A stretch of DNA of 64,000 nt from Octopus vulgaris. Taxonomy: Eukaryota. A model generated the notes under the pieces. It was not told where the DNA came from. It ran no database searches and worked only from the letters and a program-made list of their open reading frames with translations. The stretch covers positions 4,774,001 through 4,838,000 of the forward strand of contig OX597821.1 of NCBI GenBank assembly GCA_951406725.2, written 5' to 3'. Positions 56,864-57,344 of the stretch are shown piece by piece; the first letter of the stretch is position 1, and each line of letters starts with the position of its first letter. Both the position numbers and the translations under genes were made by a program.

Positions 56864-57344
56864 TAAAATATAATTGCCAAATTGATGTGGCTGTCCCTTA
56901 GTGGACGATGCTGCTCTTAATTTCAGTCCCGGGAGGACATCTCCTCCACCTGGCTAACGACGCGCTGTTTGTGTTAGATTAGTATTAGCGAAAACAACAG
57001 TATCATCGTCCTCTATGCGACTGCCACATCTGCTTCGCAATTATATTTTAAAAGTCTGTACTGCTACTGTTTAGTTCTGGCACAGTGATTTAATATTGAT
57101 TATTTCTCCTTTTTCGAGATCAGTGACAGTTTGTCACTGGAAAAAGCAAATAGTATTTGCATATGGAATGATATTATCACACACTGATGATGGGTTACTA
57201 CTCAGAAACCCGGGTCTGTGTCTATCATGTAAGGCTAGACAACTATTAATCGGACACAGACAGTGTGTCGTTAGCCAGCTGGAGGAAATGTCCTCCGGGG
57301 AATAAATCAACAGTAGCATCGTCCACATCTATTTGGCAATTATA
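56864..57344 (+). mobile_element. Highly structured non-coding element with imperfect terminal inverted arms and an internal hammerhead
   Basis: 56869-56985 pairs with 57243-57344; 56864-56915 can alternatively pair with 56997-57050. Confidence 0.75.
57179..57221 (+). ncRNA. Type I hammerhead ribozyme (GUC site; predicted cut after 57216)
   Basis: acaca CTGATGA tgggt tact actca GAAA cccggg TC tgtgt; palindromic stem III ACCCGGGT. Confidence 0.85.

Follow-up and report, generated by a model that had tools for sequence, protein, structure and literature searches.

The structured region that we followed up in Octopus vulgaris is probably an old, deleted and inactive insertion of a repeated, non-coding, hammerhead-bearing unit of 358 nt. 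The unit is likely a non-LTR retrozyme that was copied into (TA)n sequence by a Penelope-like reverse transcriptase and its endonuclease, with the long stems of the region arising as a by-product of insertion. The locus occupies positions 56816-57344 of the 64 000-nucleotide stretch of contig OX597821.1 analysed here (the window). It is a dead repeat on which SHAPE or cleavage assays would be poorly spent, and its significance rests with the family to which it belongs.

The locus consists of an inverted arm and a head-to-head sense arm carrying a partial tandem. The inverted arm (56816-56992, minus strand) covers monomer positions ~39-221 counted from the cleavage site, lacks the hammerhead and terminates at the outer of two fixed 3′ ends of the family (site B). 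The ~45-nt 'tail' between the two fixed ends (56816-56861, minus strand) is terminal on this arm only and falls outside the coordinates first assigned to the region (56864-57344). The sense arm (56991-57344, plus strand) comprises one deleted monomer of 313 nt followed by a 41-nt repeat of the monomer start (57304-57344, plus strand), which is a second copy of 56991-57045 with a 14-nt deletion; its 3′ end stops ~9 alignment columns before the inner fixed 3′ end (site A). In the family alignment, deletions flank the hammerhead on both sides: ~20 nt at 57168-57174 (plus strand), which takes out the 5′ half of the extended stem I, and ~24 nt at 57239-57241 (plus strand), which takes out the 3′ half of that stem together with a downstream hairpin. 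A remnant of the 3′ branched domain of the family (two hairpins and a closing helix) is found at 57254-57303 (plus strand). The left junction is a (TA)n tract (56628-56813), the usual neighbour of the family, and the right junction is a degenerate TA-rich tract (57345-57374); a target duplication is unreadable at this copy. Pfam returned no significant match for four long frames in the vicinity of the locus. Median identity to 51 other copies was 82%, indicating an old insertion, and because it has a single hammerhead and both extended stem I halves are missing, the window copy would be unable to release a monomer alone.

The original prediction described a 5′ arm that pairs either with the 3′ end (57243-57344) or with 56997-57050. 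Both pairings exist, and the second extends beyond that range, to 56816. The pairing with the 3′ end contains 87 Watson-Crick and 6 G-U pairs, 2 A-C and 6 other mismatches and 15 gap columns (83% for 56901-56984 against 57244-57326), and the pairing with 56990-57098 contains 85 Watson-Crick and 5 G-U pairs, 3 A-C and 21 other mismatches (75% for 56816-56924 against 56990-57098). Both are explained by the partial tandem: the single inverted arm lies opposite a sense arm that holds its 3′ segment twice and so offers the left arm two pairing partners. The enrichment of G-U-compatible differences claimed for the ribozyme strand was not borne out, as the G-U to A-C counts of 6:2 and 5:3 pool to 11:5 (two-sided p=0.21; the two comparisons overlap). 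We conclude that the long stems are likely a by-product of the head-to-head arm formed at insertion.

A selected RNA of ~480 nt that switches between these two pairings and thereby controls its hammerhead seems to us scarcely credible, even though both pairings are real, the nearer one could form first during transcription, and one contig from a run that is possibly RNA matches 56812-56983 without any difference. Folding both strands, a check that had been proposed, revealed no strand asymmetry: the ribozyme strand had a z score of −13.75 (0/100 shuffles as stable) and the opposite strand −13.14 against its own shuffles. The arms are 17-25% diverged, as are unrelated old copies, and the inversion junctions differ in every copy. 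The best fold reached −204.1 kcal/mol compared with −148.6 kcal/mol for the alternative, so that unpairing the 3′ end costs ~55 kcal/mol, and at equilibrium the nearer pairing had 0.0 expected pairs. Moreover, the hammerhead is predicted to be unformed in both states.

Sequence and family alignment define a type I hammerhead motif at 57179-57221 (plus strand). The core consists of CUGAUGA (57184-57190) and GAAA (57205-57208), stem I of 5 bp (57179-57183/57217-57221), stem II of 4 bp (57192-57195/57200-57203) and stem III of 2 bp closed by a palindromic loop; the type I core of CUGANGA, GAAA, UH and three helices is thus present. The self-complementary ACCCGGGU (57208-57215, plus strand) is predicted to form helix III between two copies, and cleavage would occur after GUC, between 57216 and 57217 (plus strand), following the hammerhead consensus given in PMC4209133. 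All elements of the canonical hammerhead with palindromic stem III that had been reported at this position are therefore in place, but stem II is flanked by one extra nucleotide on each side. These are U and A in the window copy, and most often C (39/52) and A (49/52) in the aligned copies. The G10.1-C11.1 pair is present with one extra base on each side in subfamilies A, B and C and is core-adjacent in D.

Core columns were conserved in 49-52 of 52 aligned copies, which were largely selected by the motif itself. Stem I covaries (A-U/G-C 38:8; G-C/A-U 26:14), and the palindrome is swapped as a whole between subfamilies, being AUCGCGAU in C and ACCGGU in D. The Rfam hammerhead models gave no match in the window at the gathering score and none in three family loci (L228, L032 and L246) at E≤5; they also missed the canonical motif of subfamily D. 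Folding models assign the stems of the window copy a probability of 0.0 (stem II) and at most 0.28 (stem I), and predict that they hardly form in any folded context. The active hammerhead monomer fold had −2.7 kcal/mol, compared with −14.1 kcal/mol for the best fold, and cofolding of two copies gave no active dimer. Dimer cleavage via a palindromic loop is described for such motifs in PMC4209133.

Related copies are numerous in the genome. A family search returned 45 matches from the best 40 of 570 candidates scored, a genome search found 25 exact 33-mers, and a gapped core pattern had 167 exact matches compared with 0 for its control; the 3′ part of the unit alone gave 3888 candidates. From hammerhead to hammerhead the unit measures 358 nt in locus L032 and closes on itself. 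We mapped 145 arm ends at 90 non-duplicate loci chosen by similarity. All 41 adjacent opposite-strand junctions, located in 40 of the 90 loci, were head-to-head with scattered 5′ points, and the other 50 loci had no adjacent inverted arm. Arms were 5′-truncated and ran through the cut site once or twice. Their 3′ ends fell into two narrow bands in 103 of the 145 cases, 46 at site A and 57 at site B, the latter count being inflated because one query ended at site B. Site A lies ~176 nt and site B ~221 nt after the cut, ~45 nt apart. Most arm ends run into TA-rich sequence, with (TA)n flanks read by eye. In the old A/B set, 20 of 41 inverted pairs were classifiable, as 15 AB, 3 AA and 2 BB.

A further candidate feature, 5′ truncation at the cleavage site, was rejected: 15 of 147 arm starts seemed to lie at positions 1-3, and in all 14 that were printed the match continued upstream, marking these starts as an artefact of the reference boundary.

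Four presumed-RNA runs, available as contigs only, contained 119, 82, 52 and 41 family-like contigs. Loose ends at 57239-57240 in the contig comparison coincide with the ~24-nt deletion site, and backward joints in the contigs are ordinary unit sequence; such contigs cannot reveal circles or RNA ends. Family-like contigs pile up at 57249-57305 far more than elsewhere in all four runs, to which copy number and the similarity cut-off may contribute.

Long inverted arms and TA-rich flanks would also be expected of a MITE, a foldback element at the DNA level that has terminal inverted repeats. Arm lengths and junctions are variable, however, and more than half of the mapped loci lack an adjacent inverted arm. 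Tandem multimers and 5′ truncation are marks of a retro-element, and covariation in the monomer fold is seen on the hammerhead strand. The variable junctions refute the MITE reading, to which we assign practically no probability; the initial identification of a retrozyme-type element is upheld.

RNA structure is under selection at the family level, inside the 358-nt monomer. RNAalifold on the ragged full alignment recovered 8 pairs only, and a trimmed alignment tolerant of decayed copies was used instead. A structure derived from subfamily A2 alone and tested on B1 showed 4 two-sided changes compared with 0.81 expected (P=0.008) and 9 broken pairs compared with 14.4 expected (P=0.02), the covariation among copies that the original prediction had called for. 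Further comparisons gave 5 two-sided changes (A1b and B1, P=0.003), 2 (A2 and B0, P=0.02) and 2 (A1b and B0, P=0.09). A hand-drawn structure of 64 pairs, whose test leans favourable because it was drawn from the same sequences, paired in 88.5% of cells and had 87 two-sided changes compared with 41.6 in shuffles; the 19 pairs in which such changes occurred did not outnumber those of shuffles (180/500). In this structure a long rod carries the hammerhead at its tip, and the branched domain that comes next contains both end sites. Circular monomers folded with z scores of −3.1, −4.6 and −4.9 (20 shuffles each), and their antisense with −4.2, −2.8 and −4.0.

Selection on RNA structure, proposed for the region itself, thus holds for the family, but the window copy has lost much of the monomer fold. 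Of the 64 family pairs it retains 35 (22 are gapped), fewer than any other of the 52 copies, in part because it is shorter and deleted. The hairpin at 57121-57139 (plus strand), upstream of the hammerhead, was rightly singled out and is a family feature, with the stem kept and the loop variable between copies; the commonest A-subfamily form has a C·A mismatch where the window copy pairs. The second predicted hairpin, gcaaata-g-tatttgc, is present with its one-base loop, but none of the other aligned copies showed that form. Where a copy is intact, the GGGAA that follows the hammerhead can pair with a UUCCC further downstream or, alternatively, with the upstream half of the extended stem I. The subfamilies retain both possibilities (alignment A1, columns 197-202, 292-297 and 303-312); this small family-level alternative pairing is deleted in the window copy.

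Two further subfamilies, C and D, share this organization and likewise have two fixed 3′ ends ~45 nt apart and (TA)n surroundings. Identity between A, C and D monomers is 51-56%, and a similar branched circle is predicted for them. Subfamily C (2370 candidates) has a 350-nt unit with its own palindrome and an AUA site. Subfamily D (1857 candidates) has a 360-nt unit and a canonical stem II, and its copies are 93-99% identical, i.e. young. Inverted arms were found in 23 of 29 D loci, 18 of which had been hand-picked for having several arms; in L232 a trailing piece of the A/B family was dropped. One A end was combined with one B end in 22 of the 23 inverted D insertions, with a query that forced a B end or read-through and not an A end, and in 18 of 20 inverted C insertions, with a query that contained an inverted junction. 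Together, 40 of 43 inverted insertions had one arm per end site, the C and D queries favouring site B and inverted copies.

Four of five D insertions with non-microsatellite flanks had target duplications of 12-13 bp. D arrays contain up to 5 exact 360-nt units per arm, and the full units of both arms represent one haplotype (2.8 and 3.6 differences within and 11.1 between insertions), with 39 of 43 within-array variants absent from other insertions. Young examples with multi-unit inverted arrays and a 13-bp target duplication are L228 (G000:C2:144930700-144934400) and L027:93-694. A further diverged relative, ~62-65% identical to subfamily C, is arranged in tandem at 360-nt spacing (L179:2468-2991).

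These properties recall Penelope-like elements. A Penelope-like enzyme is reported to cut both strands of AT-rich DNA and to start at two internal sites, and the Penelope tail is described as unique to these elements and tied to the two start sites of reverse transcription (PMC11167929). In coding elements, a tail at one end accompanies head-to-head arms (PMC3846280, PMC8557442). The hammerhead unit has the same marks: two fixed 3′ ends with an optional tail, partial tandems, head-to-head arms and (TA)n targets. Elements encoding a Penelope-like reverse transcriptase and a GIY-YIG domain are abundant in the octopus genome, some with intact 781-aa frames, and may be grouped as Poseidon-like and Neptune-like on our reading of motifs described in PMC8557442. 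A Neptune-like family has two 3′ ends and a (TA)n flank of its own, as does the hammerhead unit. In the Neptune-like family of loci L174-L177, intact 781-aa frames are numerous, the 3′ region is long and repetitive, and an atypical hammerhead-like motif lies near the two 3′ ends.

Could the copies be solo terminal-repeat stumps of an unsampled autonomous Penelope-like element, the tandems being stumps set head to tail? Such stumps are described in PMC3846280, the copies have the geometry of the stumps of a Neptune-like family at 44297-44767 of the window, and scoring in each search covered the best 40 or 150 candidates. Sequence past the tail, however, reaches the hammerhead again within ~100 nt in A, B, C and D, and D arrays hold several exact units per arm. 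Among 82 coding loci, the unit was in no case the terminal repeat of a reverse transcriptase/GIY-YIG element. The sole pair of hammerheads 2.7 kb apart (identical, at 2705 bp), which might have bounded an autonomous parent, turned out to result from local duplication of mixed repeats and to lack a reverse transcriptase frame. We therefore regard stumps as an unlikely explanation. Two other candidate parents were rejected: the units close to Neptune-like frames in L178, L184 and L179 represent independent insertions, and the abundant Poseidon-like family carries another, minimal hammerhead.

Twin priming yields 5′ inversions in L1. Mobilization of the retrozyme by a LINE, with the inversions arising by ordinary twin priming, agrees with the presence of LINE fragments in the window, and PMC7229834 names LINEs as the other candidate mobilizer. 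Several Penelope-like marks speak against this: the 3′ ends lie at two fixed internal positions, the tail is optional, poly(A) is lacking, and the arms extend over the same sequence for several units. The LINE explanation is consequently very improbable.

We favour copying by a Penelope-like enzyme, which could proceed as follows. Tandem copies would be transcribed, and their hammerheads would cut as dimers through the palindromic loop, releasing a monomer that would then be circularized, as laid out for retrozymes in PMC7229834. The Penelope-like enzyme would nick both target strands and begin reverse transcription at the two internal sites, ~176 and ~221 nt downstream of the cut, giving two cDNAs that would pass the cut site, sometimes for several rounds, and would be joined at short microhomologies. 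More tentatively, and with somewhat less than even confidence, we suggest that a single circular RNA serves as template for a Penelope-like enzyme, probably of Neptune type, which uses the two nicked strands as primers, each at a different one of the two fixed internal sites, with both arms rolling round the same circle. Uniform D arrays could alternatively arise from copying of a linear multimer, and PMC3846280 explains head-to-head arms by self-priming on an antisense template, which rivals priming from two nicked strands. If single-circle, two-primer copying is true, the mobilizer of animal retrozymes is named, and one mechanism accounts for both the Penelope tail and the head-to-head arm; it is testable with the 360-nt template of young D and intact enzymes from the same genome.

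The window contains further elements. At 7717-8978 lies a different young hammerhead element with 480-bp units, head-to-head arms 96-98% identical, three hammerheads with closed stem III (8027, minus; 8507, minus; 8787, plus) and unequal ends, both in (TA)n; it is likely another retrozyme family with the same geometry. The region 44297-44767 consists of two head-to-head 3′ ends of a Neptune-like coding family (96-97% to L178), with arms of 252 and 224 nt, a tail on one side and a hammerhead-like motif at 44590. A broken Poseidon-like Penelope element (2522-3650) comprises a reverse transcriptase fragment (83% to L086) and small inverted pieces. One decayed hammerhead-like motif, from a further family, is located at 24850-24915 (minus strand), and an inverted repeat with 132-nt arms, 86% complementary, and a 5-nt centre at 55506-55774. 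We also observed a degenerate 5S rRNA copy (34795-34895, minus strand) and a tRNA-like sequence (59974-60045, plus strand).

By sequence criteria, the family would be classed among the metazoan non-LTR retrozymes. Its non-coding tandem units of 358, 360 (D) and 350 nt (C) carry a type I hammerhead and fall within the 150-450 bp of retrozymes, and D insertions have target duplications of more than 4 bp and no LTR-enclosed interior. The retrozymes described by Cervera and de la Peña in 2020 (PMC7229834) have units of 350-390 bp in mussel and 330/350 bp in axolotl. The octopus family resembles them, as portrayed there, in its non-coding tandem unit of 350-360 bp with low GC, its type I hammerhead with a 2-bp helix III and palindromic loop, its target duplications of more than 4 bp and the presence of Penelope-like elements in the same genome; the mismatch at the base of stem II recalls axolotl HHR_Amex2. 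In contrast to those retrozymes as described in that paper, it has short arrays, frequent head-to-head arms and two fixed 3′ ends, and the window copy is decayed. Whether LINEs or Penelope-like elements mobilize animal retrozymes is left open in PMC7229834 and in the relevant parts of a 2024 review (PMC11722881). Within the portions of the literature covered, including PMC11722881 and PMC10886601 and with repeat databases and subscription journals outside this scope, neither the family nor tail evidence for a retrozyme is described. A self-contained hammerhead unit that carries the Penelope tail, in several subfamilies down to 51% identity, bears on the mobilizer question. The near-strict rule of one A end and one B end, together with a single haplotype across multi-unit arms, makes for a concrete and testable integration model, for which young subfamily D is the best experimental material.

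With GIY-YIG Penelope-like elements, as presented in PMC3846280, PMC8557442 and PMC11167929, the octopus unit shares pLTR-type partial tandems, an inverted head-to-head copy, a tail confined to one end, (TA)n or AT-rich targets and a hammerhead upstream of the reverse transcription starts. Unlike these elements, it has no coding frame, its tail measures ~45-50 nt compared with their 30-40, and its hammerhead tips a long covarying rod whereas theirs is minimal. It shares no DNA with the sampled coding Penelope-like families. Non-autonomous Chlamys elements such as MRC1, in the account of PMC8557442, lack a canonical hammerhead and resemble the 3′ end of their partner, whereas the octopus unit has a hammerhead and no such resemblance was found. 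Like the octopus unit, such elements are non-coding, pLTR-forming and inserted in multiple copies head to tail, and they are moved by a Penelope-like element.
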